Below, in pieces: positions 2,186 to 34,400 of a stretch of 60,443 nt of DNA; the stretch's first letter is position 1, and every line of letters begins with the position of its first letter. The position numbers were made by a program, and so were the translations under genes. The notes below the pieces were generated by a model. The model saw only the letters and a program-made list of their open reading frames with translations. It had not been told where the DNA came from and did not search any database. The stretch lies in contig JAZOCL010000089.1 of assembly GCA_045596485.1 (NCBI GenBank), forward strand, positions 1 to 60,443. Direction: 5' to 3'. This stretch comes from Clostridia bacterium. GTDB taxonomy: Bacteria; Bacillota; Clostridia; Monoglobales; Monoglobaceae.

Positions 2186-2578
2186 TTATTTTTTTTCATA
2201 GCTCAACAGCTCAAGAATTTTTTTGTATAAATCCTTGGGGAGCTCGTGGCAGATTGCGTGCGTTTTGCCGTGACATATAATAAGGTTTTCGGTGATGCCG
2301 CATTTGAAAAAGCTGTTTATGAAGTCTATATATTCTGATGTGATAGGCGTTTCTACCGTTTTGAAGCAGAAAGTGGAGGAGGAATCGTAGCAGTCTATTA
2401 TGTCAAGGGGAGAAACACGAAGCGCGTGAGCAAGAAGCTTGATTTTGTCGCTACGCATATTTTTTATGTAGCCGCTTTCCCACTTTTTTACAGTGCTTTT
2501 GCTGACGCCTACCAGCTTTCCTACTTCTTCAAGGGTAAGTCCCAGTTCTTTTCGTCTTTGCTTTATGTCAAAAAACAT
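2186..2578 (-). CDS. XRE-family HTH repressor (cI-like)
   Basis: N-terminal HTH_3 signature (RRKELGLTLEEVGKLVGVSKSTVKKWESG). Divergent from the cro-like gene. Confidence 0.8.
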   Translation of the reverse strand: MFFDIKQRRKELGLTLEEVGKLVGVSKSTVKKWESGYIKNMRSDKIKLLAHALRVSPLDIIDCYDSSSTFCFKTVETPITSEYIDFINSFFKCGITENLIICHGKTHAICHELPKDLYKKILELLSYEKK

Positions 2579-2644
2579 AATGATTTATCCTTCCTTTTTA
2601 GTATTATCTCTTTTGTCTTTCTACTAATTTTACTAAAATTATCG

Positions 2645-2738
2645 CCCTAGAAAACGGCGTAACACCGTTTTTCGCAGAATGACTTCTGCGACTTTCAAAC
2701 TTTTTGTTTGAAGGCTGCGCTTGATTTTCATTATAACA
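2645..2738 (+). repeat. half copy (domain I, three hairpins) of the multi-hairpin repeat family
   Basis: AAACGGCG-taa-CACCGTTT, CGCAGAA-tgac-TTCTGCG and CTTTCAAAC-tttt-TGTTTGAAGG occur in the same order and spacing as hairpins H1-H3 of the 6561 copy, with changed but still pairing stems. The copy ends in ATTATAAC. Confidence 0.6.
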
Positions 2739-2797
2739 CAAGAAATTTGTAAATGCAACTTGTTTTTACAAAAAAGTAAAAATATGTTAGTTATCTA

Positions 2798-2826
2798 TTG
2801 ACAAGACTGTAAAAAAATGGTAATAT
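2798..2826 (+). promoter_or_regulatory. early rightward promoter of the phage-like cluster
   Basis: TTGACA (2798-2803), 17 nt, TAATAT (2821-2826). TATTGACA occurs twice (2796 and 2823), and an 8-bp inverted repeat TTTGTAAA/TTTACAAA (2746-2772) lies just upstream as a candidate operator. Confidence 0.55.
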
Positions 2827-2856
2827 TGACAGTGCGAAAAACAGGAGGTGAGTCAT

Positions 2857-3060
2857 ATGGATGCTGAAAAGCTGAAAATGAAAATAAAGAAAAAAGGATT
2901 TTCGGCAAAAAAGCTTGCGGAAAAAGCGGGAATTGAAAGAAACGCCCTTGAAAGAAAGCTGACAGGGACAGAAGACTTTTTGCTTTGGGAAATTATAAAA
3001 ATTTCAAAGCTGCTTTCGCTGGAAAACAAAGAAATGCTGAATATTTTTTTTGACGGATAA
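2857..3060 (+). CDS. small HTH protein (cro/antirepressor-like)
   Basis: The AGGAGG RBS at 2844-2849 favours the ATG at 2857 (the ORF track starts at GTG 2848). The GFSAKKLAEKAGIERNALERKL segment is HTH-like. Position is divergent from the repressor. Confidence 0.6.
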   Translation: MDAEKLKMKIKKKGFSAKKLAEKAGIERNALERKLTGTEDFLLWEIIKISKLLSLENKEMLNIFFDG

Positions 3061-3090
3061 GTTTCCTAAAGGAAACAAAATTTTTGGCAG

Positions 3091-3285
3091 GTGGTGAAGA
3101 TGGGAATAGAGCATTCTGAAATTTGGGAGACTGAAAGATTTGGAGGTGCGACAAAGGACAGCGAGGTTTTTTGTTTTTGCTGTGGACTTGTTTTGGAAGA
3201 GAAAGAAGTCCTGAGTGACAGATTTGGACGTTGCTTTTGCGGCATCAGGTGCAAAAAGATTTTTTACGAAGGAGAAGGTTTATGA
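3091..3285 (+). CDS. small cysteine-rich hypothetical protein (possible zinc ribbon)
   Basis: 64 aa with CFCC...CFCGIRC cysteine clusters. The stop overlaps the next gene's start. No family recognised. Confidence 0.4.
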   Translation: MVKMGIEHSEIWETERFGGATKDSEVFCFCCGLVLEEKEVLSDRFGRCFCGIRCKKIFYEGEGL

Positions 3286-3650
3286 CAAAAAAGGAGCTTA
3301 TGCAATGCTTTTATCTTAATCGGGAGATTATGAGTGACACAGAGGAATTGGTTAATCTGAAAATCATAGCCAGAGACGGAAATGGGTTTGAATTTCACGA
3401 CGAAGAGGAGATAAAAAGACGAGAGAAAAGAATTGTTGAAAAAATCAGACGGTGCACAGAGCTCAAAGACAGAATTGAAAAATTTATAAATTCCATCGAT
3501 GACAGTCTCACCAGACAGATTTTTTATTACAGGTTTGTGAAATGTATGCCCTGGAAGAAGGTCAGCTATATGACAGGGGGATATAACAGCGATGAGGGTG
3601 TAAGAAAAATTGCTGAAAGGTACCTGAAGTCAATTGAGAAGAATAAATAA
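3282..3650 (+). CDS. phage sigma-70 region-4-like transcriptional regulator (late-gene activator, DUF1492/RinA-like)
   Basis: ATG at 3282 follows GGAGAAGG. The C-terminal part (LTRQIFYYRFVKCMPWKKVSYMTGGYNSDEGVRKIAERYL) resembles sigma region-4 HTH proteins placed just before terminase genes in Firmicutes phages. Confidence 0.55.
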   Translation: MTKKELMQCFYLNREIMSDTEELVNLKIIARDGNGFEFHDEEEIKRREKRIVEKIRRCTELKDRIEKFINSIDDSLTRQIFYYRFVKCMPWKKVSYMTGGYNSDEGVRKIAERYLKSIEKNK

Positions 3651-3699
3651 AGCTTGTCCGATTTGTACGCAAATTGCTGATATAATTTAATTAAGATGA

Positions 3700-3981
3700 G
3701 TGAGACAGATTGGAGGGAGAGGCGTGGAAGAAAAAAACATACAGAATTGTGAGGACAGCCTCATTACGGATTATATCCGCAAGAGAAAAAAGGATGTGTG
3801 CAGGCTGATTGACCGATTGATGATTGAAATTGCAAATCCTGACAGAATTGCGGCTGCGCCTCTCAATCAGCTGTCATCCGTTATGGGAACCCTTATTGAC
3901 AAGTTTGGGGCAGGAGAAAAGGACAGTGCTTTGGAGGGAACTCTTTCTACACTTTTTGATGACTTTGAGGATGTGAGCTAA
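3700..3981 (+). CDS. hypothetical protein in the small-terminase position (possible truncated TerS)
   Basis: Lies immediately upstream of TerL with a 2-nt gap. It is 85-93 aa depending on start (GTG 3700, or GTG 3724 after GGAGGGA). No HTH-like segment is seen. The assignment is positional only. Confidence 0.35.
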   Translation: MRQIGGRGVEEKNIQNCEDSLITDYIRKRKKDVCRLIDRLMIEIANPDRIAAAPLNQLSSVMGTLIDKFGAGEKDSALEGTLSTLFDDFEDVS

Positions 3982-3983
3982 GC

Positions 3984-5186
3984 GTGAGATACTACAAAAA
4001 TCTTACCCGAAAGCAAAATCTGCTGATGCAGCGTGCAAAGGGCGGGCTCAAAAGAATAAACATTCTTCACGGAAGTGTCAGGTCGGGAAAGACCTGGATA
4101 AGTCTTGTGCTCTGGTGCGTGTGGATACGCAATATGCCAAAAGACAGGTGCTATCTTATGACCGCAAAGACCCTGACAACCCTGAAACGCAACTGCCTTG
4201 ACCTTTTGGAGATTCTTGCCGGACGGAACAATTTTAAATATTCAATATCAAAAAAAGAGGGGGTTCTTTACGGAAGAAAAATTTATCTTGAGGGAGTTAA
4301 CGATGCGGGAGCAGAGAGCAAAATCAGGGGAATGACCCTTCAGGGGGCATACTGCGATGAGGTTACACTTTTTAACGAGGAGTTTTTCAGTATGCTGCTG
4401 TCACGACTTTCGGAGCCGGGGGCAAAGCTTTTTGGAACAACTAATCCCGATAATCCAAATCATTGGTTCAAGGTGAAGTATATTGACCGCAAGGACGAGC
4501 TGGATTTCTTTTTGATGGAGTTCTTGATAGATGACAACACCTTTCTTGACCCCCATTATGTTGAGGAGCTGAAAAAGGAGTATACAGGAGTCTTTTATCG
4601 AAGGTTTATTCTTGGGGAATGGTGCAGCGCTGAGGGGCTTGTTTATCCTATGTTTGATAAAGAGCTGCACACCCTTGACGAGATTCCGCAGCCTGTTGGG
4701 ATGGCAGAGTATTATATTTCGGTGGACTATGGAACGCTGAATCCTTGCAGTATGGGGCTTTGGCGTCTGGACGACAGATGTGCGGTGAGGCTTAGGGAAA
4801 GCTATTATTCGGGCAAGCAGCAAAAAAAGCTGCTTACCGATGAGGAATATTATGAGAGGCTGGTAGCTCTAGCGGAGGGCTTTGACATTAAATGCGTAGT
4901 TATAGACCCCTCTGCTGCCAGCTTTATTGCAACAATCAGGAGGCATGGAGAGTTCAGCGTGAGAAAGGCAGACAACAATGTTCTCAACGGAATCAGGATT
5001 ACGGGAAGTCTTTTAAAAAGCGGAAAGCTTTTGGTGCACAGCTCCTGTGAGGATGCAATCCGTGAGTTCGGTACTTATTCCTGGGATGAGGAGTCGGAGG
5101 AGGACAGGGTTGTTAAAGAGTTTGACCACGCTATGGATGACATCAGATATTTTTGTGCCACGGTGGCCGAAAAGCGGCTGCTATGA
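3984..5186 (+). CDS. terminase large subunit (PBSX-type)
   Basis: Walker A GSVRSGKT, Walker B-like YCDE, and a C-terminal nuclease-like region (VIDPSAASF...DHAMDDIRY). 400 aa. Confidence 0.9.
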   Translation: MRYYKNLTRKQNLLMQRAKGGLKRINILHGSVRSGKTWISLVLWCVWIRNMPKDRCYLMTAKTLTTLKRNCLDLLEILAGRNNFKYSISKKEGVLYGRKIYLEGVNDAGAESKIRGMTLQGAYCDEVTLFNEEFFSMLLSRLSEPGAKLFGTTNPDNPNHWFKVKYIDRKDELDFFLMEFLIDDNTFLDPHYVEELKKEYTGVFYRRFILGEWCSAEGLVYPMFDKELHTLDEIPQPVGMAEYYISVDYGTLNPCSMGLWRLDDRCAVRLRESYYSGKQQKKLLTDEEYYERLVALAEGFDIKCVVIDPSAASFIATIRRHGEFSVRKADNNVLNGIRITGSLLKSGKLLVHSSCEDAIREFGTYSWDEESEEDRVVKEFDHAMDDIRYFCATVAEKRLL

Positions 5187-5232
5187 AGCTGGTGCGGAAT
5201 ATATATGTAAGTTTTGACGGGAGGCAGGAAAG

Positions 5233-6582
5233 GTGTTTGAGAACATCAGAGAATTTTTTGGAAGGGTGAGAAAAAGTATGTTTGACAAAACGGTGATTGG
5301 TTCGGCAATTTCTTCGGAGATTGCTGTGTCGGACGAAATGAGCGGAGCAATCAGGCTCTGGAAGACAATGTATGAGGAACAGAGCGGACTTCATCTGCCT
5401 GCGGCAATTGCCTTTGAGATGGCGAGGCTGATTACGCTGGAAATGGAGTCGAAGCTTTCGGGGAGCGCACGAGGAGAGTTTCTTGATGAAAGCTACAGGG
5501 CTGTGATTGAGAATATAAGAGTTCCCGTTGAATACGGCTGTGCAAAGGGTGGACTTGTTATGAAGCCTTATGTTTCAGAGGGCAGGATTTTGGTTGATTT
5601 TATTCAGGCTGATAAGTTCTTTCCTACCGAGTTTGACGAAAACGGCAAAATCAGAGGTGCGGTTTTTGTTCAGACCAGAGCCAAGGATGGGAAATTTTAT
5701 ACCAGACTTGAAAAACATCGGTTTGTGGGAAAAACCTATGAGATTTCTAACAGAGCTTTTTGCAGCACAAACCGTGATTACCTTGGCAGAGAGATTTCCC
5801 TTGGTGAGGTTGAGGAATGGAAGAATCTTTCGGAGAGTCTTTCGATTTGCAATGTGAAGGCACCCTTGTTCGGGTATTTCAGACCTTCGATAGCCAATAC
5901 TGTTGACCCGTCTTCACCTCTTGGAGTGTCGGTTTATGCCAATGCGGTGAATCTTATTGAGGATGCGGACAGACAGTATGAACGCTTTTTGTGGGAGTTT
6001 GAAAGCGGTGAGCGTGCCCTCATTGCAAACAGTATGGCATTCAAGCGTGACAGAGACGGAAGACCAAGGCTTCCTGACAGAAAGCTTTATCGCACTATGG
6101 ATGTGGAAGATATGGACTTTTTTAAGGAATGGTCGCCGCAAATTCGGGAGGATGAGTTTTCAAAGGGACTTAACAGAATTTTCAGGCAGATTGAGTTCAA
6201 CTGCGGCTTTGCTTACGGAACTCTTTCGGAGGTCAGCGACTCGGAAAAAACCGCCGAGGAAATCCGTGCATCCAAGCAGAGAAGCTATGCAACCGTTTCG
6301 GACAACCAGAAGGCACTAAAGAATGCTCTCAAGGAGCTTGTTTATGCAATGGATGTTTGGTGTACTCTTTATAATCTGGCACCAATGGGCGAATACAGTC
6401 TGTCCTTTGACTTTGATGACAGCATTGCGGCAGACAGAAGAGCTCAGTTTGAAGAAAAGCAGGCCTTGGTGAACAACAAAATTATGGCACCCTGGGAGTT
6501 CAGAATGTGGTACTTCGGTGAGGACGAAGAAACAGCGAAGAAAAATATTGCTGATATAATCATTGACGTGGAAACGGCGTAA
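5233..6582 (+). CDS. portal protein
   Basis: 449 aa, directly after TerL and before scaffold/MCP, with size and position typical of SPP1-type portals. The last 7 codons and the stop lie inside the repeat element. Confidence 0.8.
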   Translation: MFENIREFFGRVRKSMFDKTVIGSAISSEIAVSDEMSGAIRLWKTMYEEQSGLHLPAAIAFEMARLITLEMESKLSGSARGEFLDESYRAVIENIRVPVEYGCAKGGLVMKPYVSEGRILVDFIQADKFFPTEFDENGKIRGAVFVQTRAKDGKFYTRLEKHRFVGKTYEISNRAFCSTNRDYLGREISLGEVEEWKNLSESLSICNVKAPLFGYFRPSIANTVDPSSPLGVSVYANAVNLIEDADRQYERFLWEFESGERALIANSMAFKRDRDGRPRLPDRKLYRTMDVEDMDFFKEWSPQIREDEFSKGLNRIFRQIEFNCGFAYGTLSEVSDSEKTAEEIRASKQRSYATVSDNQKALKNALKELVYAMDVWCTLYNLAPMGEYSLSFDFDDSIAADRRAQFEEKQALVNNKIMAPWEFRMWYFGEDEETAKKNIADIIIDVETA

Positions 6583-6735
6583 CGCCGTTTTAGCGGAATT
6601 TCATTCCGCAACTTTCAAACTAAAGGTTTGAAAGCCACGAATGATTGCAATAAAGTCGGCTTGTGAAAACACAGTTTTCACAATGGTTTGCTAAATTTAG
6701 CAAACTGAAATATTAAAATATTTCACCGACGTATA
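6561..6735 (+). repeat. multi-hairpin repeat, copy 1 (two cloverleaf-like domains, six hairpins); candidate MITE or structured ncRNA
   Basis: Domain I is closed by CATT..CGTGG / CCACG..AATG and holds H1 6571-6591, H2 6593-6609 and H3 6612-6634. Domain II is closed by GTCGG 6655-6659 / CCGAC 6726-6730 and holds H4 6661-6683, H5 6686-6705 and H6 6706-6725. There are 2 mismatches over the first ~170 nt against the reverse complement of 9331-9505. Confidence 0.85.
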
Positions 6736-6843
6736 TTATACTGCAGTAACTTTGTTAAATTGTCCGGGATGACGATAAACTAACAATCCTTTGCAGAAAG
6801 AAACTGCGTTAAAAAACTGAAAATAAGGAAGGAGTTCATAGCT

Positions 6844-7404
6844 ATGACAAGAGACGAGTTGAGAGGAATTATTGAGGGAATATCTGACGAACAGCTAAAG
6901 AAAATTCTTGATATTAATTCCGCAGACATCGGAAGGGTTAAGCTTGGCACTGAAAAAATAAAGGCTGAGCTTGACGGGGCAAATCTGAAGATTTCGGATA
7001 TGGAAAAGGAAATGGAGTCTTTAAGACAAGGTCAATGTGAGGCAGAAGAAATGAAAGTAAAGGTTGAAGAGCTGCAAAAAGTCATTGACCAAAGAAGACT
7101 TGAAGACGAGGCTCGGGCAAAGGAGGCTGCCTTTGAGGAAAGATTTTCGGCAGCGGCAGGTGAGGCTAAATTTTTGAACGACTATACCAGACAGGGAATT
7201 TTTGCTTTGTTTCAGGAGGCTCTTGAGGCAGAGGAAAATCAGGGCATGTCGGACAGCGAGATTTTTGCAAGTCTCACAAGGGACGCAGTCAATATTTTTG
7301 AAGCCGAAAAGGATGTTCCCTCGGTGGTTGCTTCGACATCGGGCTTCGGCGGGGATTTGAGCCGCGGCGATGTTCGGGAGATTATGGGTTTGTCACGTGA
7401 ATGA
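6844..7404 (+). CDS. phage scaffolding protein (GP20-like)
   Basis: Coiled-coil, acidic 186-aa protein between portal and MCP. The N-terminal LKKILDINSADIG region resembles the Phage_GP20 family. Confidence 0.7.
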   Translation: MTRDELRGIIEGISDEQLKKILDINSADIGRVKLGTEKIKAELDGANLKISDMEKEMESLRQGQCEAEEMKVKVEELQKVIDQRRLEDEARAKEAAFEERFSAAAGEAKFLNDYTRQGIFALFQEALEAEENQGMSDSEIFASLTRDAVNIFEAEKDVPSVVASTSGFGGDLSRGDVREIMGLSRE

Positions 7405-7446
7405 GGAGAGTAAAACTCTTCAATATTAATTTTCGGAGGAAAAATT

Positions 7447-8319
7447 ATGGCTAATGCAATTGAAAAATTCAAGAAGTATATTGACACTCTTGACGAGGTG
7501 TATAAGGTGGCATCCGTTACCTCGGTGCTTGACGGCAACAACCGTTTGGTGAAGATGGGTGCAAATGCAAATGAAATTATTATTCCTAAAATGTCAATGG
7601 ATGGTCTTGCTGATTACAGCCGTGAGAACGGTTACGTGGGCGGAGATGTTACGCTCACAAATGAAACTGTCACCTTCAATTATGAACGCGGACGTTCATT
7701 CACCATTGACGCAATGGACAACGAAGAAACAGCAGGTGTTGCCTTTGGTCAGCTTTCGGGAGAGTTTATCCGCACAAAGGCGGCTCCCGAGATTGATGCC
7801 TTTCGTTTTGCACAGTATGCAGGCACAGAGGGTATTGCCAAGGTTGCGGCAAATCTTTCGGAGGCTGATGCCACACTTGCGGCGCTTATTGCAGCCCAAA
7901 ATGCAATGGATGAGGCTGAGGTTTCAATGGAAAGCAGAATTCTTTTCATTACACCCACGCTTTATAACGGTGTTATGAACATTGACACCACAAAGTCAAA
8001 GGCAGTTCTGGATTCCTTCAGCCAGATTGTGAAGGTTCCCCAGAGCAGATTCTATACCGCTATCAATCTTTTTGACGGTTCAACAGGCGGTGAGGAAGCA
8101 GGTCACTTTGTTAAGGCTGATGAAGGAAAGAACATCAACTTTATGATTATCGAAAAGTCTGCGGCAATTCAGTATCAGAAGCATTGCGTGAGCAAGGTTG
8201 TTACACCCGAGGAAAACCAGTCTTCGGATGCGTGGAAGTTCTTCTACCGTGCTTACGGTATTGCAGATGTTTATGAAAACAAGGTGTGCGGAGTTTATCT
8301 CCACCACGCTGAAATCTAA
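7447..8319 (+). CDS. major capsid protein
   Basis: 290 aa immediately after the scaffold gene with a strong RBS (GGAGGA). Composition and position are typical of SPP1 gp13-like MCPs. Confidence 0.8.
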   Translation: MANAIEKFKKYIDTLDEVYKVASVTSVLDGNNRLVKMGANANEIIIPKMSMDGLADYSRENGYVGGDVTLTNETVTFNYERGRSFTIDAMDNEETAGVAFGQLSGEFIRTKAAPEIDAFRFAQYAGTEGIAKVAANLSEADATLAALIAAQNAMDEAEVSMESRILFITPTLYNGVMNIDTTKSKAVLDSFSQIVKVPQSRFYTAINLFDGSTGGEEAGHFVKADEGKNINFMIIEKSAAIQYQKHCVSKVVTPEENQSSDAWKFFYRAYGIADVYENKVCGVYLHHAEI

Positions 8320-8349
8320 TTGACCGATACAGGTTTTGGGAGGATTATT

Positions 8350-8463
8350 GTGCGATTTGTAGGACTTGTGAAGGCAGCAGCCAAAGAGAAAGCTGCCGCA
8401 AAAACTGCGAAAAAGCCAAAGACCACGAATAAAGAAAGCGGTGATAATGGTGCAAAGGCTTGA
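8350..8463 (+). CDS. possible 37-aa lysine/alanine-rich small protein (not in the ORF track)
   Basis: A GTG at 8350 follows GGGAGGA. The translation is VRFVGLVKAAAKEKAAAKTAKKPKTTNKESGDNGAKA. Support is read-through only. Confidence 0.3.
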   Translation: MRFVGLVKAAAKEKAAAKTAKKPKTTNKESGDNGAKA

Positions 8464-8800
8464 TGTGAGCTATGAATACTACTTCAATATTTATAACTGC
8501 GGACATCAGGGTGACCTGAGCCGACAGGACTTTGAACGCTATATTTGCCGTGCGGAAAGAGAGCTTGAGGGGTATTTTGTCCTTGAAAGAGCTACGGACT
8601 CGCAAAAGGAGTCGGTTTGGCTTTGTGCCTGCGAGATTGCAGAGGTGCTGCATAGGTTTGACTCTCTTGATTCGGTGAAGAGCGAGACTATTGACGGGTA
8701 TTCGGTTACATATTCCGACAGAGGCAGCCTTGTTACAAAAATCCGCAGAATTGTTCTCAGACGGCTGGGAGGTACCGGACTTTTGTTTGCGGGGGTGTAA
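8441..8800 (+). CDS. head-tail connector / DNA-packaging adaptor protein
   Basis: 119 aa in the position after MCP, with a size typical of gp6/gp15-like connectors. Confidence 0.5.
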   Translation: MIMVQRLDVSYEYYFNIYNCGHQGDLSRQDFERYICRAERELEGYFVLERATDSQKESVWLCACEIAEVLHRFDSLDSVKSETIDGYSVTYSDRGSLVTKIRRIVLRRLGGTGLLFAGV

Positions 8801-8802
8801 GT

Positions 8803-9126
8803 ATGCTGAAAAACGGTGTTGCCACAATTTTTACGCTTGACCCAAAGGGCGAGAGGTTTGTCAAAAAGGGCGTTTTTGATGCGTGGATTTACCACCAAAA
8901 AAGGCTCCGGACAAATGAAAACGGTGTTTATTGCAGGGATAGCTTTGACGTGAGAATTGCTCTTTGTCTTGTTGATGAAATCCTTGAGGGAGACCTGATT
9001 TATTTTGGAGGGCTGGACGAGGCGGATTTTGCTGTGGCGAAATGCAGAAGAGTTGCAGTTGTGGGAAAGAACTGCCACGGAGCTAATCCCCATTGGCATT
9101 TACAGGCGGAATATGACTACAGATAA
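8803..9126 (+). CDS. head closure / head-tail adaptor protein
   Basis: 107 aa, tightly packed after the connector gene. Positional assignment. Confidence 0.45.
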   Translation: MLKNGVATIFTLDPKGERFVKKGVFDAWIYHQKRLRTNENGVYCRDSFDVRIALCLVDEILEGDLIYFGGLDEADFAVAKCRRVAVVGKNCHGANPHWHLQAEYDYR

Positions 9127-9325
9127 TGAAGGTATCTTAGGGAAAAACGTTAAAAACGTTTTTCCTCGTCAAAATAACATTTTGACGAGGAAATTGCAAT
9201 GCAATTTCCCGATACTTCATTGCAACGAGGTTCTCGAAAATTGTTCTTTAAACAATTTTCCAAGTAGCAAATGCCTTGCTACACTGAAACAGCGTTATCA
9301 CGCTGTTTCGCTAGAGAACACTCGT
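9125..9325. repeat. dense nest of at least 7 consecutive hairpins in a 200-bp non-coding gap, including a large palindromic element at 9125-9221
   Basis: An outer stem AATGAAGGTATCTTAGGGA (9125-9143) / TCCCGATACTTCATT (9207-9221) encloses hairpins at 9143-9163, 9164-9190 and 9190-9208. Further hairpins lie at 9237-9260, 9264-9282 and 9287-9309. Confidence 0.75.
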
Positions 9326-9330
9326 TATAA

Positions 9331-9505
9331 TAATTGTCGGTGAAATATTTTAATATTTCAGTTTGCTAAATTTAGCAAACCATTGTGAAAACTATGTTTT
9401 CACAAGCCGACTTTATTGCAATCATTCGTGGCTTTCAAACCTTTAGTTTGAAAGTTGCGGAATAAAATTCCGCTAAAACGGCGTTACGCCGTTTCCACGT
9501 CAATG
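9331..9505 (-). repeat. multi-hairpin repeat, copy 2 (inverted relative to copy 1)
   Basis: Its reverse complement equals 6561-6730 except for two loop substitutions (H2 loop C/T, H4 loop C/T). It is flanked by a perfect 7-bp direct repeat GTTATAA (9324-9330 and 9506-9512). Confidence 0.88.
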
Positions 9506-9952
9506 GTTATAAGGAAGAAAGGTGAAGAGATTTTGATTGATGAGATGGTGAAGTATCTTTCCGGGTGTCCTTACCTGGACAAGGTCGGAATAAAAATTAA
9601 TTATCTTGAGGGCAAGCCCCTTGCCTTTTCCCTTAAAATGCTGCCCACAGAGCCTGTTATGAAGCGGTATGCGGACGGCGGTGCGGTCTGTGAGGCTCGG
9701 TTTGCATTGTGTTTCAGGCAGGAATACAGCCGTGCCGAAGCCGAAAACCGTGCGGCGGCTGAGCTTTGTGAAAATGTTGAAGCCTGGATTTGTGACCAGA
9801 ACAACAAAGGAGAGCTGCCTGATTTGGGAGATGGAGTGAAGCCTCTTTCACTTGCGGTGGCAGAGAGCTTTGGGATTACCCCTACGGGCAGCATTGACGC
9901 AAGGTTTGAGGCGGAGCTGCGGTTGGTTTATTTTGTTCAATACGTGGGTTAA
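9503..9952 (+). CDS. neck / tail-completion protein (start uncertain)
   Basis: The ORF track starts at 9455, inside the repeat. ATG 9503 (also within the repeat end), TTG 9533 and ATG 9545 are alternatives after AAGGAAG/AAAGGTGA. Its position before the major tail protein supports the call. Confidence 0.45.
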   Translation: MVIRKKGEEILIDEMVKYLSGCPYLDKVGIKINYLEGKPLAFSLKMLPTEPVMKRYADGGAVCEARFALCFRQEYSRAEAENRAAAELCENVEAWICDQNNKGELPDLGDGVKPLSLAVAESFGITPTGSIDARFEAELRLVYFVQYVG

Positions 9953-10021
9953 TTTTTGTGCAGAGGGTGCGGCAAGTGGTGTCTGCACTCTCTGCCTGTG
10001 TTTTCAGAAGGAGGAAATTTT

Positions 10022-10513
10022 ATGTCAGAAATTATTAAGAGATACAAAAAGCTGGCGTTTTTTGGAGTTCCCGAAACGGGCAATGACGATTCGGCGAGCT
10101 ATGTTTTTTACCGTATGAAGGGCTTTGATGAGATTTCGACCTCAAAGAATCCCAGAGAATATTCAAGGCAGTATGTTGACGAGGAGTTTGAACAGACCGA
10201 TGTGGTGGGCTATAACCCGTCAATTACCTTCGGGTTTGACAGATTCAGCGGTGACCCTGTTCATAATGATGTTATTGAGATTTTCAATAAGGAAAAGGTC
10301 GGTTCCGATGCGGTGAGACCCATCATTATGGTGGATATGGCAAGTGATGAGAAGTCGGCTATCAAAAGAGACTTTGCGGTTATCGCCGAAAATGAGGGAG
10401 ACGGTCTGGATGCATATAAATACAGCGGAACTCTGAGAGTTAAGGGCGAAAAGGTCTTTGGTACTGCTCAGAGCGACGATGACTGGCAGACCTGCACCTT
10501 TGTGGAGGAATAA
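10022..10513 (+). CDS. major tail protein
   Basis: ATG at 10022 after AAGGAGGA. 163 aa, directly before two chaperone-position genes and the tape measure. Confidence 0.6.
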   Translation: MSEIIKRYKKLAFFGVPETGNDDSASYVFYRMKGFDEISTSKNPREYSRQYVDEEFEQTDVVGYNPSITFGFDRFSGDPVHNDVIEIFNKEKVGSDAVRPIIMVDMASDEKSAIKRDFAVIAENEGDGLDAYKYSGTLRVKGEKVFGTAQSDDDWQTCTFVEE

Positions 10514-10516
10514 TTT

Positions 10517-10855
10517 ATGAAAAAGGAATCGGAATTCAAGAAAAAGACGGTGATTTGTGAGCTTCTTGGACACAAAGCTGAAATTGCTGTAAGCAGCAAA
10601 ACTTCTGTGCTGTGCGAGAAAATAAAAAACGAAGCGCGGGCTTTGCTGAAGGAGCTTGAGGAAGAGCCTCAGGGTGACTGTGAGAATGCGAGGATTGCCA
10701 AATTTTTTAAAAAAAGCATTAAAGCTCTTGGGGGAGAAAAACTGTTTTTTGAGGCATTTGCAGAGAAGGAGGCTTCTGTGGCAGAGCTTTCAGGAGTCTT
10801 ATGCTGTATAATCTCAGCTCTGGGAGAAGCTCTTGCTGAGGATACGGAGGCGTAG
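10517..10855 (+). CDS. tail assembly chaperone (gpG position)
   Basis: 112-aa acidic, helical protein between the major tail and TMP genes. Confidence 0.5.
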   Translation: MKKESEFKKKTVICELLGHKAEIAVSSKTSVLCEKIKNEARALLKELEEEPQGDCENARIAKFFKKSIKALGGEKLFFEAFAEKEASVAELSGVLCCIISALGEALAEDTEA

Positions 10856-10861
10856 GCAAAG

Positions 10862-11431
10862 GTGAAAAACAGATTTTTGACTTATGCCGAAAAGGTTGAA
10901 ATTGGTGGAAAAGAATATGACATCAATACCGATTTTTCGGTGTGGATTGAAATTGAGCAGCTGCTGATATATTCTGACGGCGATTATGGCAGCAGGCTTG
11001 CAAAGGTTCTCTCGCTTGCCTATGCTGTTTTGCCTGAGGACCCCAAAGGAGCGGTGGAGAAGGTTTTATGGTTTTATGCTTTGGGTAGAGAGCCTGAGAA
11101 TTCGGGTTACGATTTGCCCCCGGCTCCCGTTTTTGATTTAATGGAGGATTTTGAATATATTCGTGCAGGTTTTTTAAGTGAGTTTGGCATTGATTTGCTG
11201 GAGACAAATATGCATTGGTGGCAGTTCAGAAAGCTTCTTTCGTGTCTTGGTGAGGACTCAAAGTTCTCAAAGATTGTGGCATACCGCACGACAGATACGG
11301 CAAAAATCAAAAATCGTGAGGCCAGGTTGTTTTTTGAGAGAATGAAGAAAAAATACAAACTCAAAGACAGGCGCAGCCCTGAGGAACGCGAGACAGAAAC
11401 CGCCTTGAAGCTCGAAACGCTTTTTTCTTGA
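10862..11431 (+). CDS. phage Gp15-family protein (second chaperone position)
   Basis: The N-terminus (FLTYAEKVEIGGKEYDINTDFSVWIEIEQLL) resembles the bacteriophage Gp15 family that lies before TMP in Firmicutes siphoviruses. Confidence 0.55.
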   Translation: MKNRFLTYAEKVEIGGKEYDINTDFSVWIEIEQLLIYSDGDYGSRLAKVLSLAYAVLPEDPKGAVEKVLWFYALGREPENSGYDLPPAPVFDLMEDFEYIRAGFLSEFGIDLLETNMHWWQFRKLLSCLGEDSKFSKIVAYRTTDTAKIKNREARLFFERMKKKYKLKDRRSPEERETETALKLETLFS

Positions 11432-11510
11432 GTACGGTTCTTTTGAGGAATTGCAGAGACAGACGAGGTGTTTGTCTCTGCAGAAAATCTGATTTAAAGG
11501 AAGGACTAAT

Positions 11511-12710
11511 ATGTCATTTGATTTTCAGAAATACATAGAAAATCTGGAAGCAGAGGCTGCAAAAAATGATATAGGCAAAATGCTTGCATCAGGAATCGGT
11601 GTTGGAATCAGCCAAAATTCTTATCTGGCAATTACTGCTATGGAGAATGTGTATGTTGAGCTGGAAACACTGACAAAAAATGCAGAAAAGCTTGATAAGA
11701 AACGCCGTGAGCGTGAAGTGGACAACCTTAAAAACTGTCTTGAGCTGGAGCTGATTTCGGAGCAGGAATATTATGAAAAGCTGAAGCAATACCGTGATGA
11801 GAACCTGAGACAGGGCTCTGACGAATGGTATAAATATACAGAAGAGATCATCGGCTACAACAAGCGTCTTATGGAAGAAGCAGCAGAGCAGCAGATTAAG
11901 GCAGTTAAAAAAATTCAGTCGCTTCAGCAGGAGCTGAAAGAGCATCTCATTGGCAAGGATGAGGATTGGTATTCTTCATATAAAGTTACTTTTTTGGGAA
12001 TCAATCCTAATGGTAGTGACGCTGTTTTTCATAAAAAAACACTGGAGGATTTTGAAGAAGAAATCAGACTTCTTGAAAGATACCGTGATGCCATTCTGAA
12101 GCTGAAGGCGTTGGGAAATATTCCTGACGGAGTTTTTACGGCTTTCGGCAAAATGGATGTTTTGGAGGCAGTTGAGACTGCTGAAATGCTGCTTTCGGTT
12201 GATGAGAAAACCCGAAGCAGATTTGTTGACGGGTATAACACCCGCAATGCTCTTGCTGAGACTATTGCAGGTCAGCTGAACGGAATTGTTAATAAGGAAG
12301 AGCTGGAGGCAGCAGGAATTTCTTCTGCTGAAAGCTTTAACAAAGGTTTTTTTCAGGCAGACGGTGATGAAAAAACACAGTTTGTAAAGAAGCTTGAAGA
12401 AAGCTTTGAAAGCGTTCCCGAAAGCTATTACAGCCTTGGGGAGGAGTCGGGAAGCGCCTTTGGAAAGGGTTTTCACGGTCAGGTTTCGGGTGTTGTGGAG
12501 CAGGCAAAGGGGTTTATGCTTTCAGCAATGAATGAGATTACGGCTGAACTTGCGGCTATTGCTGCAGACTTTGCAAGGTTGGTGAAGACGGGAGACTCGA
12601 ATATTTATAACACCACATATACCTTCAATTCGTCAAGAGACACAACTACTGCACAAATTGCGGCGGCAAAAAATGCAAGTGCAATGGACAGAGTGAGGGG
12701 GATAAGATAA
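11511..12710 (+). CDS. tape measure protein (short, 399 aa)
   Basis: Long coiled-coil N-terminal half, positioned between the chaperones and the distal tail protein. Confidence 0.6.
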   Translation: MSFDFQKYIENLEAEAAKNDIGKMLASGIGVGISQNSYLAITAMENVYVELETLTKNAEKLDKKRREREVDNLKNCLELELISEQEYYEKLKQYRDENLRQGSDEWYKYTEEIIGYNKRLMEEAAEQQIKAVKKIQSLQQELKEHLIGKDEDWYSSYKVTFLGINPNGSDAVFHKKTLEDFEEEIRLLERYRDAILKLKALGNIPDGVFTAFGKMDVLEAVETAEMLLSVDEKTRSRFVDGYNTRNALAETIAGQLNGIVNKEELEAAGISSAESFNKGFFQADGDEKTQFVKKLEESFESVPESYYSLGEESGSAFGKGFHGQVSGVVEQAKGFMLSAMNEITAELAAIAADFARLVKTGDSNIYNTTYTFNSSRDTTTAQIAAAKNASAMDRVRGIR

Positions 12711-13567
12711 TGAGCCTTACAATTACATACAAAAACGAGCTGGGAATGGTGACAATGCAGGGCGGGGGCGATGCTTCTTCGTTTCGGATAACTGCAATCG
12801 AAGGGCTGGGGCTTGTCAGCAGAGAGTATAGCACAGCGGTTTATTCGGGGTATGACGGTCAGGAAACTCTGAGCTCAAGAGCCGAAGCCCGAACCATTAC
12901 AATCGGTCTTGAGGTTATGGATAAGGATGTGACAAAGGCTGTGCGCTCCGCTCTTCAGGTGCTTGGCCGTGAAGGAACGCTATATATAAAAAGTGAGAAC
13001 ACAGACAGGCGGATAAGGTGTAGTCAGGTATATGCTCCTGATATTACCAGAGTTCTTCGGGGCGAGATTGCCACCTTTGCTCTGCAGCTTGTCTGTGACA
13101 GCCCGTACTTTGAGGACGGCACAGACACGGTTGTTCCCCTTTATCAGAGAACAAAGCTCCTTGAAACGCCCTTCACCCTTCCTGCGGTGTTTGGCAACAT
13201 TGTTGTTGGAGCAACCGTAAGGATTTTGGGTACGATTTCGGTTGAGCCGATAATCACTCTGTATTATCCTTCGGCTTTGGAAGGAATTGAGAGCATTGTC
13301 ATAAGAAACGAGACCACAGGTGCGTCAATTCAGCTTGATTATGCGCCGCAGGCCGATGATACGGTTACTATTGACATCAAGAACCGCAGAATTTCAAGCT
13401 CGGTAAGCGGAAACCTCATAAACTATCTGTCGGAGGATACCTTTTTGGGAGATTTTGTTCTGGTTTACGGTGTAAATATTCTGTCGGTGGATTTGGGAGA
13501 TGTGACCTCGGGCTTTACAATTGAATGCCGATACAACAATCTTTACAATGAGGCGGTGATTGTGTGA
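12710..13567 (+). CDS. distal tail protein (Dit, Sipho_tail-like)
   Basis: 285 aa, start overlapping the TMP stop. The N-terminal pattern (ITYKNELG...FRITAIEGLG) is typical of phage tail family proteins. Confidence 0.65.
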   Translation: MSLTITYKNELGMVTMQGGGDASSFRITAIEGLGLVSREYSTAVYSGYDGQETLSSRAEARTITIGLEVMDKDVTKAVRSALQVLGREGTLYIKSENTDRRIRCSQVYAPDITRVLRGEIATFALQLVCDSPYFEDGTDTVVPLYQRTKLLETPFTLPAVFGNIVVGATVRILGTISVEPIITLYYPSALEGIESIVIRNETTGASIQLDYAPQADDTVTIDIKNRRISSSVSGNLINYLSEDTFLGDFVLVYGVNILSVDLGDVTSGFTIECRYNNLYNEAVIV

Positions 13568-14694
13568 GGGATGTTCTTTTTTATGACTTCGACTTTAACG
13601 TTCTCGCAGATTATCCACGATTTATTTCGCTGAACATTGACAGGAATTATTGCGGCTTTGGTACGGCGGAACTGCATTTTTCTTTGAAGGATTCAGAGAT
13701 TATAGAACTGCTCGAAGCTAATCCCTATTTGTTCTTTGTGGCAGGTGAAAATGCGGCAATCGTGACCGGGTGGAGAATTGAAGAGGATATTGCCATATTC
13801 GGCAGAACCCCTGAATGGCTTTTGACAAAGCGCGGACTTGAGCCTTTTTCGCAAACGGGAAAAACTCCTGAGGTGATTGCCAGAGCTGCTGTGACCTCTG
13901 CTGCAGGCGACTTTTTGACACTTGGAGAGCTTTCAGGAGTGGGAGATGCACAGGATTATTCCACGGACAAGGTTAGAGTTCTTCACGATGTGGTCTGTGA
14001 GGTTCTGAAGGATCAAAATCTTGGGTTTAAGGTTGTTGCAGATGTCAAGACGAAGCAGTTTATCTTTTCGGTATTTTCAGGAACCGAAAAGCAGGTTTTG
14101 CTCTCGCCTTCAAACAGAACGGCTTATGATATGCAGTATACAGTTGAGAAACAGGATGCAGTCTCCAATTCGGGCTGGTTTTTGAGAAAGCTGGTTGATA
14201 TGGGCGAATGGAGCGCATCGGCGAACTCGCCTAAGCTTACGAACGGTGTTGCGAGTAATGCTTTCACCTATTACAAAATAACAACGGCAAGCAGCTCACG
14301 CTTTGGGCTTTCTTGTGTTAAGGGTGAATATCTTTATTGTGACAGCCGTGACGGTGTTTGGAAGACAAGTGCCGAAAAGCCTGCGGATGCCTGGGATTAT
14401 ATTGAAAATTGCGAATTGACAGGTGCAAAGAAATGGGAAGCGGTTTTAAGCGGAACAAAAACAGAGACTGAAGCAGCTATGGAGCTTGCTCAGCGGACAA
14501 AAAAAGAGTCATCGGCAGCTCAAACCAAGGGCGTGGTGTATGGCGAGGATTATCTTCTTGGAGACATTGTCAGGGTTCAGGTTGAATTTGGTGACTTCAG
14601 GAAGGCAGAGAAAAAACGCATAACCTCGGTGAGTATCTATTATGACGTAGATAAATCGGGTGTTGTGCCGATTTTTAACAGTTTGGAGGAATGA
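13564..14694 (+). CDS. Siphovirus Gp37-like tail/baseplate protein
   Basis: The N-terminus (LFYDFDFNVLADYPRFISLNIDRNYCGFGTAELHF) resembles the ReqiPepy6 Gp37-like family. It overlaps the Dit stop. Confidence 0.55.
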   Translation: MRDVLFYDFDFNVLADYPRFISLNIDRNYCGFGTAELHFSLKDSEIIELLEANPYLFFVAGENAAIVTGWRIEEDIAIFGRTPEWLLTKRGLEPFSQTGKTPEVIARAAVTSAAGDFLTLGELSGVGDAQDYSTDKVRVLHDVVCEVLKDQNLGFKVVADVKTKQFIFSVFSGTEKQVLLSPSNRTAYDMQYTVEKQDAVSNSGWFLRKLVDMGEWSASANSPKLTNGVASNAFTYYKITTASSSRFGLSCVKGEYLYCDSRDGVWKTSAEKPADAWDYIENCELTGAKKWEAVLSGTKTETEAAMELAQRTKKESSAAQTKGVVYGEDYLLGDIVRVQVEFGDFRKAEKKRITSVSIYYDVDKSGVVPIFNSLEE

Positions 14695-14697
14695 TAA

Positions 14698-15588
14698 ATG
14701 GCAATTACATACAGCTTTGTTGACGGAGCTTCATACGGACCCGAGGATATTAACAGTATAACGAGCAGCCTGGTTGGGGCAGGCGTTGCGCCCTTTCTCA
14801 CAAAGGACAGCTATAATGTGTCAGACCTGAATGTGCTCACCGAAGCTCTTGTTGAAGAGGGGGTGCAGCTTGAGGGCTGCAAGTGTGCTGTTTCAAATGT
14901 GGGGGCACAGAATATGTCTGTTTCTGTGGGTCAGGGTATTGTTTTTTTTGCAAGCGGCGCACGGCTTGAGGTGGATAGTGACGGTTATACCGTTGCGGTG
15001 ACACCGAATACGGCAGGGTATATCTATGCATATTTTAACTCTGCACTTCAAACGGCGGATATACTGTTTGCAGAGGAGCTTCCCACAGATGGCGAATCGG
15101 TAGTGCTTGCTCAGCTCACGGTGGATGGAGTTTTGAAGGATAAAAGAGTTTTTGCCCGTTCAAAGATTGGAACAATGGGAACGAATATTGCGCTTACTGT
15201 TGGTTTTACCCCTCTTGATGAGCCTGTTCTTTATTGGGAGGCAGGGTCTTTAGTCTCGTATATATTGTCAAGAGTTGAAGATGTGAATTTGAGCAAGTTC
15301 AACTTTGCTCAGGTATGCACAGACGGGGTGCTGGGAGGAAGTAATACTTCTAACATTTTGGGGTTTGGTGAATGGACAGCATTCTTTGATATAAATGATG
15401 GGACAATAAAATATGGTTTGCACGACGGAAACGTGTGGGCTGCAAACTGTCTTTATTATACTTCGTCTACAACCAGATATGAGCTAGAAATCATTGAAGG
15501 AAAGCTGTGCCTTTATGTACGTTGCTATAAAAGTGATGCAAACAGTGCCGTCAAAAGGTTGAGAGATTGCACGGCAACATTTATGTAA
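14698..15588 (+). CDS. tail structural protein (fibre or baseplate component)
   Basis: 296 aa within the tail-tip module. No family recognised. Confidence 0.4.
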   Translation: MAITYSFVDGASYGPEDINSITSSLVGAGVAPFLTKDSYNVSDLNVLTEALVEEGVQLEGCKCAVSNVGAQNMSVSVGQGIVFFASGARLEVDSDGYTVAVTPNTAGYIYAYFNSALQTADILFAEELPTDGESVVLAQLTVDGVLKDKRVFARSKIGTMGTNIALTVGFTPLDEPVLYWEAGSLVSYILSRVEDVNLSKFNFAQVCTDGVLGGSNTSNILGFGEWTAFFDINDGTIKYGLHDGNVWAANCLYYTSSTTRYELEIIEGKLCLYVRCYKSDANSAVKRLRDCTATFM

Positions 15589-15602
15589 AGGGGGGATATT
15601 TT

Positions 15603-16451
15603 GTGCTTGAATTTGAGGTTAAAAATCAAACGATAAAAAGGACAGATACTTTTAACGCAGTTGCCGACAGCCGCAACTATCTGAGGGCTAAATTCAGTCT
15701 TTCGGAGGAATGGCAGGGGGATGTTGTTGCGGTGTTCGGTTACGGCGGCAGCTTTTTTCAGCTCTTGCTTGATGAAGCCGAAAGCTGCATAGTCCCTTTT
15801 GAGGTAATAAAGGCACCGGGGTTCACGGTTTCGCTGTTTTGCGGTGAGGAACGGCTGGTGACCGCAAATGTACTTTGGGTTGGCGTGGAAAAATCGGGGC
15901 TTGAAGATGGAGAGGTTCCTCAGACGCCCACGCCTACTGTTTGGCAGCAGTATATGAAAGAAATGCAGGAACTTATAGACAACGGACTTCCATACATTGG
16001 TGACGACGGCAATTGGTGGCTGTATAACACAGAGCTGAAAAGCTATGAGGACACAGGCATTACCGCAAATGGCTACACTCCACAACGGAGCGTTGACTAT
16101 TGGACTGAAGAGGATAAGGCGGAGATAAAAAGTGATGTTGCTCCGTTTGTTGTAAATATTGCTGTTGCGGGTGACGGAAGCATCACAGTAGACAAAACCT
16201 TTGAGGAAATAACGGCAGCACATAATGATGGCAGGGTTGTGCTGGGAATTCACGGCATAAGTGTTTTGACCCTGATTACTCTTTCGGCTTCGGTAGTTGG
16301 TTTTTTGCAAATTATCAATGAAGGTTTCTGTATTTTTTTCTGTAATTCCTCGGATGTTTGGTCAACATCTGTAGTTAATATAGCAAGAAAAGAGTATGTT
16401 GACGAGTCAATCCAATCTGCAATTCTTGAAAGCTGGGGGACGGCGATATGA
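15603..16451 (+). CDS. tail fibre-like protein
   Basis: GTG at 15603 after AAAGGGGGGA. It contains an IGDDGNWW motif common in Firmicutes prophage fibre proteins. Confidence 0.4.
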   Translation: MLEFEVKNQTIKRTDTFNAVADSRNYLRAKFSLSEEWQGDVVAVFGYGGSFFQLLLDEAESCIVPFEVIKAPGFTVSLFCGEERLVTANVLWVGVEKSGLEDGEVPQTPTPTVWQQYMKEMQELIDNGLPYIGDDGNWWLYNTELKSYEDTGITANGYTPQRSVDYWTEEDKAEIKSDVAPFVVNIAVAGDGSITVDKTFEEITAAHNDGRVVLGIHGISVLTLITLSASVVGFLQIINEGFCIFFCNSSDVWSTSVVNIARKEYVDESIQSAILESWGTAI

Positions 16452-17215: not shown

Positions 17216-17400
17216 TGAAAAAAACAATAATTGAATTGACAAGGCTTACGGCATCAGAGGGAATGGTTCTCACAAACGGCGAGGCTTTCGGAAAAGAGAT
17301 TTATCTTGGCTGTAATGACAGCCCCGACAATTGGAGAGAGATAACCGAGGCGGAGTATGATGAAATACGAAAGTCAGTTGAGGAGGAAGCTTTATTATGA
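17215..17400 (+). CDS. small hypothetical phage protein (XkdX position)
   Basis: 61 aa between the fibre genes and the holin. ATG at 17215 overlaps the preceding stop. Confidence 0.35.
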   Translation: MKKTIIELTRLTASEGMVLTNGEAFGKEIYLGCNDSPDNWREITEAEYDEIRKSVEEEALL

Positions 17401-33922: not shown

Positions 33923-34121
33923 ACTGGATTATTCGGAATTAGCCCAATTTAAACCTTTTAATTTTGAAAAACGGGACCTCAAAAGGTGGCAAGGTTTAAA
34001 ATACGCCCGTTTTCTCCTGTTTCCTCTCGTTTTCTCCGAATTTATAGGGAGTTTGGAAAATTATGGGTAAAGAGGAAAGGTATGCAAGAAGAGGTAAGTA
34101 TTGGTTAAAAATTTTATTAGC

Positions 34122-34162
34122 AATGAAGTATCGGGAAAGTTTTTCCCTAAGATACCTTCATT
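34122..34162. repeat. miniature copy of the 9125-9221 palindromic element (closing stem only, inner hairpins absent)
   Basis: AATGAAGTATCGGGA-aagttttt-CCCTAAGATACCTTCATT is the reverse complement of the two arms at 9125-9143 and 9207-9221, without the 9143-9206 insert. Confidence 0.75.
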
Positions 34163-34167
34163 ATAAT

Positions 34168-34342
34168 CAATGTCGTAGAAAACGGCGATACGCCGTTTTT
34201 TGCAGAATTTATTCTGCGACTTTCAAGCTTCGGCTTGAAAGCTACGCTTGATTGCAATAAAGTCGGCTTGTGAAAACATAGTTTTCACAAAGGTTTGCTA
34301 AATTTAGCAAACTGAAATATTAAAATATTTCACCGACAATTA
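34168..34342 (+). repeat. multi-hairpin repeat, copy 3 (outside the phage-like cluster)
   Basis: Domain II is identical to copy 2 except for one linker base. Domain I differs by paired, stem-preserving substitutions in H2, H3 and the closing stem. It is flanked by a perfect 7-bp direct repeat TTATAAT (34161-34167 and 34343-34349). Confidence 0.88.
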
Positions 34343-34400
34343 TTATAATCTAAAACAAATAAAAATATACACGAAAAATATCACCCAAAGGAAAAAACTT

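Follow-up and report, generated by a model that had tools for sequence, protein, structure and literature searches.

A structured, non-autonomous mobile repeat of Clostridia with at least two subfamilies, bordered by TATA

What kind of element is the folded, non-coding repeat that recurs along contig JAZOCL010000089.1 of a Clostridia bacterium (assembly GCA_045596485.1), and why has its fold been kept? The window considered here is the whole stretch of 60,443 nucleotides of this contig, in which an initial annotation, made from the sequence alone, had described a unit of about 175 bp with two junctions of three hairpins each, imperfect inverted ends and 7-bp flanking repeats. This unit is an undescribed, structured and non-autonomous mobile repeat, which comprises at least two subfamilies (A and B) and occurs in at least three genomes. 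Its plan reads 5'-AY, left arm, centre (A/G)TTGCAAT(A/G)AAGT, right arm, AT-3'. It is considered likely that the repeat represents a new family of small mobile DNA which integrates at TATA, the folded top strand being favoured as the substrate of the mobilising enzyme.

The mobility proposed for this non-coding repeat is borne out by a precise empty site for its first copy (E1), located at the 3' end of a portal gene. Removal of 182 nt (6559-6740) leaves a sequence that aligns without any gap, at 241 of 244 positions, to the Logan contig L022, whose portal is 96% identical to that of the window. The empty site of L022 reads …ATTGCCGATATACTGCAGTAA… and the filled site of the window …ATTGCTGATATA[ATCATTG…GTATATTATA]CTGCAGTAA…, with one TATA in the former and a TATA on either side of E1 in the latter. 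The same comparison corrects the size of the target duplication, since TATA alone (4 bp) has been duplicated in place of the 7 bp assumed at first, a reading that would require a mutation in each copy. The 7-bp repeats around the second and third copies (E2 and E3) are indeed perfect in sequence, but the true duplication is the 4-bp TATA, and the additional matching bases of the 7-mers correspond to AY, with which the element itself begins, and to T, with which it ends. The 7-mers are perfect because the element begins with AY and because the bases that follow the right TATA are the start of a further copy (E4) next to E2, and a host AT next to E3.

At all the other sites the repeat is absent from relatives. 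E3 is lacking at the orthologous site of three of them (L019, L020 and L076), and in L076, the methyltransferase of which is 89% identical, the empty site contains a single TTATAAT, 60 nt ahead of the start codon, so that the target of E3 was a -10-like TTATAAT box. The interval occupied by E2 and E4 measures 404 nt, compared to 23-49 nt between the flanking genes in relatives, and the gap between the cI-like and cro-like genes, which harbours a shortened copy, is about 100 nt longer here (270 nt) than in relatives (170-199 nt). E5, an intact copy from another genome, is likewise absent at the orthologous place in relatives. At the site of E2 and E4, the relative L021 (portal 90% identical) possesses only CCATTGACGT followed by TTATTAT (L021:4089-4115), i.e., the two tips of an A-type copy, which represent what a deletion has left behind or the footprint of an excision. 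The insertions are recent, and internal deletion is their mode of decay.

The spots chosen for insertion are AT-rich and non-coding and include a -10 box, the region of a stop codon and the end of a further copy, and nothing beyond TATA is common to the target sites. Both arrays of neighbouring copies, E2-E4 and a remnant of subfamily B next to E3, are organized head-to-tail with one TATA common to the neighbours, and the ends of the element are therefore targets themselves. A TATA at every junction and tandem elements separated by a single common TATA would also result from conservative site-specific recombination, in which a circular or excised form would join the target TATA through a 4-bp TATA core. 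In this respect, BCR (Bacillus cereus repeats) mobility has been described as 'possible site-specific recombination-like' and associated with TTTAT (PMC6542083). No recombinase is linked to any of the copies, however, and the targets resemble one another in TATA alone; this mode of integration is regarded as quite improbable.

The inverted ends reported in the initial annotation are present but imperfect, and they belong to a pseudo-dyad symmetry that extends over the entire element. R1, a covariance model built from E1-E3 alone, matches the reverse complement of every A copy (E-value of about 1e-11), and the reversed right arm aligns with the left arm about the central palindrome ATTGCAAT. 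When TATA is counted, the two ends agree at 16 of 20 positions in subfamily A (TATAAT-CATTGACGTGGAAA / TATAAT-AATTGTCGGTGAAA) and at 13 of 21 in subfamily B, the terminal motif TATAAY.A.TG being common to all four ends of A and B. Together with the 4-bp TATA that stands on either side of the copies and is single in the empty site, these features support the main rival explanation, a classical MITE (miniature inverted-repeat transposable element), i.e., an internally deleted derivative of an insertion sequence (IS) with a DDE transposase, which would be moved as double-stranded DNA via its terminal inverted repeats. The hairpins would then be incidental, produced by template switching, or weakly selected at the level of the transcript. 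Elements of the IS5, IS701 and IS1380 types make 4-bp duplications. The size of 178-200 nt, the occurrence in several copies, the lack of coding capacity (all reading frames of the subfamily-A copies are interrupted by stops) and the presence/absence polymorphism with a short duplication are all those of a MITE, with the reservation that the inverted repeats are imperfect and have only TATAAY.A.TG in common. MITEs are typically AT-rich, clustered and located in AT-rich intergenic DNA, and give transcripts with stable stem-loops (PMC10969869). A classical DDE MITE would account equally well for the inverted ends, the dyad symmetry and the duplication of 4 bp; the parent IS is not known, and the classical MITE is judged somewhat unlikely in view of the fold.

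The minimum free energy RNA fold of 6561-6735 consists of two closed three-hairpin junctions, exactly as initially described, with -67.2 kcal/mol compared to -31.9 +/- 3.8 kcal/mol for dinucleotide shuffles (z = -9.4). The reverse strand of the same segment also folds (z = -8.5), and copy 3 reaches z = -9.6. The closing stem of the left arm joins the left terminus to the left half of the centre, and the right half of the centre is, in subfamily B, the partner of the right terminus; the fold thus brings both ends to the centre.

Subfamily B was overlooked when the repeat was described as a single unit, even though its representative E4 adjoins copy 2. E4 folds into two closed three-hairpin junctions (-90.9 kcal/mol, z = -11.6) with stem sequences unlike those of A. 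R1 detects E4 at 49.6 bits, aligning arm with arm, H1 with H1 and centre with centre, and R2, a model built from subfamily B alone, reciprocally detects the A copies with E-values of about 1e-8 to 1e-11. The sequences of A and B are merely about 30-37% identical, and common sequence is confined to four places, viz. the left end TATAAY, H1 (AAAC(G/A)GCG…CGC(C/T)GTTT), the centre ((A/G)TTGCAAT(A/G)AAGT..CGG) and the right end ATTAT(A).

The pairing-preserving changes noted earlier in the stems exceed the controls and extend to both subfamilies. In alignment A4, a model-made alignment of five subfamily-A sequences fitted to the structure of the model, 94.8% of the cells are standard pairs and 15 of 67 pairs are changed on both sides, compared to 6.0 +/- 1.7 after shuffling (none of 500 shuffles reaches 15) and to 0-3 in controls with slid partners. 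In alignment A5, a plain sequence-only MAFFT alignment of E4 with L020B, a second B copy from another genome, all 126 cells pair (100%) and 8 of 75 pairs are changed on both sides, versus none in every slid control. The joint alignment of A and B was made by hand, MAFFT having misaligned the subfamilies, and covariation was counted by script; 96.7% of its 398 cells pair, and compensatory types occur at 47 of 80 pairs versus 4-9 in slid controls, a count that overstates the case because this alignment was fitted to the structure. The covariation within subfamilies is independent of the hand alignment, although A4 was itself fitted to the structure of the model. H4, H5 and H6 are near-perfect palindromes, which would suit an array of double-stranded palindromic protein-binding sites (operators). 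However, it is pairing and not stem sequence that is conserved between the subfamilies, G·T pairs break the dyad symmetry of the duplex, and the closing stems link distant segments, so that such an array, already disfavoured, is scarcely credible.

An asymmetry between the two strands, which had escaped the initial annotation, bears on the nature of the folded molecule. A G·T mismatch on one strand is an A·C mismatch on the other, and the non-Watson-Crick cells of the joint hand alignment comprise 15 G·T (about 12 independent events) versus 2 A·C (binomial p of about 0.006 on events). For this reason, the strand named 'top' is the strand kept foldable. In four of the five intact copies its fold is stabler than that of the bottom strand, with a margin that reaches 10 kcal/mol in E5.

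A classical MITE leaves unexplained both the persistence of all eight helices at the low identity of A and B and the predominance of G·T over A·C (12:2). According to the favoured explanation, the element, which has no coding capacity, must be moved by some enzyme acting in trans, and the folded top strand, most likely as single-stranded DNA, would be the substrate recognised by this enzyme rather than a by-product. Recognition of a folded strand is favoured because the eight-helix architecture has been kept across subfamilies sharing almost no stem sequence, and because G·T, and not A·C, is the kind of mismatch tolerated on one strand. A selfish element that was inserted recently would be selected mainly via its ability to move. 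The ends of IS200/IS605 elements, REP sequences (repetitive extragenic palindromes) and attC sites are all examples of a folded single strand serving as the substrate of an enzyme. A bolder and doubtful extension would be a new class of structure-guided transposition, in which the two four-way junctions would bring the TATA-adjacent termini to the central ATTGCAAT and the folded single strand would be what an enzyme cuts and joins; the substrate would be DNA or conceivably an RNA intermediate, and the architecture, not the sequence, would be inherited between subfamilies.

Several points weigh against the recognition of a folded strand. The combination of pseudo-dyad symmetry, imperfect inverted ends and a 4-bp duplication is the signature of a classical double-strand DDE transposon and not that of a strand-specific one, and the copies occur in both orientations relative to transcription. 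Template-switch mutation can generate compensated hairpins without selection; both the hand alignment and A4 lean towards the structure, and the evidence comes from 5 intact and 4 partial copies. Finally, the open reading frames (ORFs) scanned in the 60-kb window revealed no transposase or recombinase with related ends, TnpA (Y1) and RAYT genes included.

The copies and their parts are listed in Table 1.

Table 1. Coordinates, flanks and model scores of the repeat copies; plain coordinates refer to the window, and prefixed ones to contigs of relatives.
Feature	Coordinates	Strand	Description	Left flank	Right flank	R1 score
E1	6559..6736	+	Subfamily A, 178 nt	TATA 6555-6558	TATA 6737-6740	227 bits
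E1 left arm	until about 6647		Four-way junction: closing stems and H1-H3			
E1 central palindrome	6644-6651		ATTGCAAT			
E1 right arm	GTCGG 6655-6659 to CCGAC 6726-6730		Holds H4-H6			
E2	9330..9507	-	Subfamily A, 178 nt; antisense to surrounding head-gene operon	TATA 9508-9511	TATA 9326-9329	227.7 bits
E3	34166..34343	+	Subfamily A, 178 nt	TATA 34162-34165	TATA 34344-34347	
Short subfamily-A copy	2634..2736	+	Left arm H1-H3 joined to right-terminus-like TTCATTATAA			45.8 bits (arm I alone aligned)
E4	9126..9325	-	Subfamily B, 200 nt; head-to-tail with E2	TATA 9326-9329 (common with E2)	TATC 9122-9125	
Subfamily-B right-arm remnant	34120..34161	+	Centre GCAATGAAGTATCGGG joined to closing strand and terminus CCCTAAGATACCTTCAT			
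E5	L063:8294-8480		Metagenome-assembled genome (MAG) JAZNCI01; intact subfamily A; same phage-like cluster, different site	TATA	TATA	164.9 bits
L001A	L001:775-955		MAG JAZNCI01; decayed subfamily A	decayed	TATA	81.8 bits
L020B	L020:10690-10848		MAG JAZPQZ01; subfamily B, at contig end	at contig end	TATA	

The three full copies and the shortened one were recovered, by sequence and with a repeat finder, at the places first assigned to them, and the intact copies of the window as a whole number 4, the partial ones 2. According to the repeat finder, 6555-6740 and 9326-9511 are inverted copies of 186 nt with 97% complementarity; E1 and E2 are accordingly 97-98% identical in inverted orientation, and within 6561-6730 they differ at two places only, the H2 loop and the H4 loop, both of them loops as previously stated. 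The right halves of E1, E2 and E3 are alike at 92-96% (repeat finder). The right arm of E3 is 95% identical to that of E1 and its left arm merely 74%, a contrast that suggests an exchange of arms between copies at the conserved centre. The shortened copy, considered at first to consist of domain I only, is a true relative of the A copies, closest to arm I of E3 (78% identity) among the left arms, but it is an internally deleted element which has retained the right-terminus-like TTCATTATAA. Similarly, the 42-nt remnant of subfamily B (34120-34161) has lost its three internal hairpins and abuts E3 via their common TATA; it shares stretches of 19 and 24 nt with E4 and is covered by an R2 match (34095-34176, 29.8 bits).

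Three further copies were found in relatives reached via protein homologues, which belong to two Clostridia MAGs. L020B lies at the end of its contig, a point at which repeats with many copies typically break an assembly. No further copies were present in about 90 kb of DNA from other relatives, including loci L065 and L070-L075. Between the thiD and rubrerythrin genes of L019 (763-875, minus strand), three successive strong hairpins are flanked by TTTATAA and AATTAT and weakly matched by R1 (19.5 bits); they may be a single arm that belongs to a third subfamily, or no more than terminators.

Catalogue searches agree with the initial opinion that the unit falls outside the named families. Rfam, at its gathering threshold, has a single match in the window, the OLE RNA mentioned below, and permissive scans over the copies gave nothing near threshold. 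No match to either subfamily was obtained by blastn among phage and plasmid records (PLSDB for the plasmids). In IMG/VR, exact-pattern scans with the H5, H4 and H1 hairpins returned nothing, the conserved-centre and H1-plus-centre patterns gave one chance match in a GC-rich phage gene and otherwise nothing, and a gapped pattern of centre plus right end gave 38 matches, none of them recognised by the model, with a recurring 94-nt match in coding sequence. A 20-mer from H5 found one true relative (L001) among GTDB genomes, the remainder being chance terminators, and only chance matches in JGI metagenomes, one of which is a CRISPR spacer in L004. A chimeric peptide query derived from the six-frame translation, aimed at spurious ORFs over further copies, returned nothing from a set of 5.8 billion proteins, and the text of a 2024 review of prokaryotic MITEs contains neither 'Clostrid' nor 'Firmicutes'. 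Other kinds of element were rejected as well: a tRNA-like element, as ARAGORN found no tRNA; self-cleaving ribozyme three-way junctions, as the junctions are nearly nucleotide-free and have no Rfam match; an IS110-type bridge RNA, as the targets share TATA alone; a CRESS-type nonanucleotide origin, as the motif lies outside a hairpin loop; and a fragment of a retron or group II intron, as neither a reverse transcriptase nor a match was found.

Among the known systems, bcr1 of Bacillus cereus, a precedent that had gone unnoticed, is the closest analogue, by likeness in working and not by membership. It is a non-coding, interspersed and transcribed repeat of about 155 bp with 5-bp AT-only direct repeats (TTTAT) and a 'cruciform-like' fold of two stem-loops kept by compensatory changes, the distribution of which is not conserved between close strains and the mechanism of which is unknown (Okstad 2004, Klevan 2007 and Kristoffersen 2011 on bcr1 and the group A BCR, as summarised in PMC3184786 and PMC6542083). 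Both repeats are non-coding and interspersed in Firmicutes, bordered by a short AT-only repeat (TTTAT there, TATA here), folded in two domains with compensatory changes, distributed like a mobile element and devoid of a known transposase. In contrast, the host here belongs to Oscillospiraceae-like Clostridia and not to the B. cereus group, the flanks are TATA and not TTTAT, each domain is a closed four-way junction with three hairpins instead of a single stem-loop, and the present repeat has a central ATTGCAAT palindrome and two subfamilies. The absence of any blastn match to PLSDB, which holds B. cereus plasmids reported to carry bcr1, is a comparison made via the plasmids and not with a bcr1 consensus.

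The ends of the Correia (NEMIS) elements of Neisseria read TATA…. These elements resemble the present repeat in their size of 100-160 bp, the duplication of a TA-containing target, the outward sigma-70-like promoters at their ends, and their insertion beside genes and into one another (PMC10969869). They differ by a single long hairpin formed through 26-bp inverted repeats and by a site for the integration host factor, and have neither cloverleaves within arms nor a reported strand-specific covariation. The ORF-less derivatives of IS200/IS605 known as palindrome-associated transposable elements (PATEs), and the REP/REPIN sequences, are comparable in their hairpin-dependent, strand-specific mobility of one strand, in the conservation of structure above sequence, and in insertion beside a short AT-rich motif which is seemingly repeated at the other end. 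PATEs have strand-specific subterminal hairpins, no inverted ends and no true duplication, and insert 3' of a fixed motif of 4-5 nt. The G·T/A·C strand asymmetry of the repeat, the TATA 5' of every copy and the TATA at the end of every copy speak for a derivation of this kind, and its pseudo-dyad symmetry and inverted ends speak against it; the IS200/IS605 and REP systems show a single imperfect hairpin at each end and lack both inverted ends and a pseudo-dyad. REP/REPIN sequences are GC-rich palindromes of 20-40 nt, often in inverted pairs, and accompanied by a RAYT gene; membership in this group was rejected for a unit of 178-200 nt with 34-37% GC and a multi-branch fold. The RUP, BOX and SPRITE repeats of Streptococcus pneumoniae are similarly small, modular and non-coding Firmicute repeats, for which RNA structures have been predicted and which affect the genes beside them (PMC3184786), but they have another module structure (boxA-B-C; plain inverted ends and a TA target for RUP), and no sequence or model match to them was found.

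With respect to its genomic setting, the repeat is distributed between a phage-like cluster and the chromosome. The head-tail-lysis cluster at 2186-18393 (about 16 kb) encodes cI-like and cro-like helix-turn-helix proteins, terminase, SPP1-type portal, scaffold, Gp15, Dit, a Gp37-like protein and amidase, and is surrounded by chromosomal genes of Firmicutes (rpsF, ssb, recD2, enolase, spoIIE, dxs, OLE, metG and ruvB). The short copy sits between its divergent cI-like and cro-like genes, E1 at the 3' end of the portal gene, and E2 between DUF6751 and the following head gene. E3 lies outside the cluster, upstream of a gene for a TrmN6 homologue, the top matches of which are named Ruminococcaceae or Clostridia MAGs; for this reason, the repeat is a chromosomal repeat that has also invaded the phage-like cluster, and not a feature of the phage.

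The insertions have consequences for the neighbouring genes. The portal ORF now ends inside E1, at 6582, with …DIIIDVETA and a stop in place of …DILQ and a stop, and strong hairpins have been introduced inside operons. Downstream of E3, the trmN6-like methyltransferase gene (34401-35165) is preceded by an outward promoter-like TTAAAA-18-TATAAT at the right end of the element (34320-34349, 10 of 12 consensus matches), by which E3 would have rebuilt the promoter ahead of trmN6. H1, which had been taken for an intrinsic terminator, agrees with the terminator consensus in copy 3 but not in copies 1 and 2. The suggested portable terminator/promoter cassette accordingly has its consensus matches, but it does not maintain the fold; as read from the sequences, it would be at best a side effect. 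The same matches, i.e., the outward promoter-like site (10/12) and the H1 terminator of copy 3, and the strand-specific fold with G·U pairs could also speak for a structured RNA with a function for the host or for the phage-like cluster (a small RNA, a cis-acting stabiliser, or a terminator or promoter cassette) that was duplicated secondarily. This is considered very improbable, since neither subfamily B nor copies 1 and 2 have conserved the promoter and terminator matches, the copies stand in unrelated contexts and in either orientation with respect to the genes around them, they are absent at the same loci in close relatives, and no Rfam family matches them. Insertion has also created an apparent gene: the 112-codon ORF 9005-9343 (+) is open across the entire reverse strand of E4, and it is spurious because its ATG (9113) lies within the 3' end of the DUF6751 gene and because the frame closes after 14 codons in L021.

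Some additional observations concern the surroundings of the repeat. Neither an integrase nor replication genes are in view in the phage-like cluster. Its position differs among relatives (loci L062, L063 and L065 were compared), being between rpsF-ssb and recD2 in the window, beside upp/ribF/truB in two relatives and beside PPIase/SLH genes in another; the cluster could be a defective prophage that is widespread in Oscillospiraceae-like Clostridia, or an element resembling a gene transfer agent. Several relatives of the cluster (L062:5580-5620, L063:8240-8275 and L065:8385-8440) contain short direct GTCCGTTTT-type repeats upstream of the small ORF that precedes the terminase; these repeats may serve as a site for packaging or for regulation. 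In a related IMG/VR phage (L010:7330-7500), the gap between portal and scaffold contains three tandem units of about 55 nt, each made of a covarying hairpin (e.g., TCGTTTAAAAGC…GCTTTTGAACGA) followed by AAGAGGTGGRGCAGCGG and unrelated in sequence to the studied repeat; the portal-scaffold gap seems to collect structured inserts. On the chromosomal side, a full-length OLE (ornate large extremophilic) RNA, a known family, occurs at 51452-52099 on the minus strand (471.6 bits), with a CNNM-like membrane ORF (50848-51432) and dxs (48975-50924) as neighbours, and marks the contig as a Firmicutes chromosome. An inverted repeat with 38-nt arms, 87% complementary and separated by 10 nt (39705-39790), directly follows the gene of a trypsin-like protease and probably represents a terminator with a long hairpin.

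No mechanism is known for small structured repeats of the bcr1 kind, and the present family offers a tractable case: its two subfamilies fold into the same eight helices, the empty site is precise, the target is defined at 4 bp and the active strand is named. It is unusually well suited to asking how small structure-dependent repeats move, and overturns nothing that was established before. For annotation, such insertions inflate intergenic regions, break assemblies (the L020 contig ends in a copy), create spurious ORFs (9005-9343) and alter the C-terminus of the portal protein. As its TATA target occurs in -10 boxes, the element lands in promoters and would rebuild one at its right end, and in this way it may rewire gene expression in gut or rumen Clostridia.

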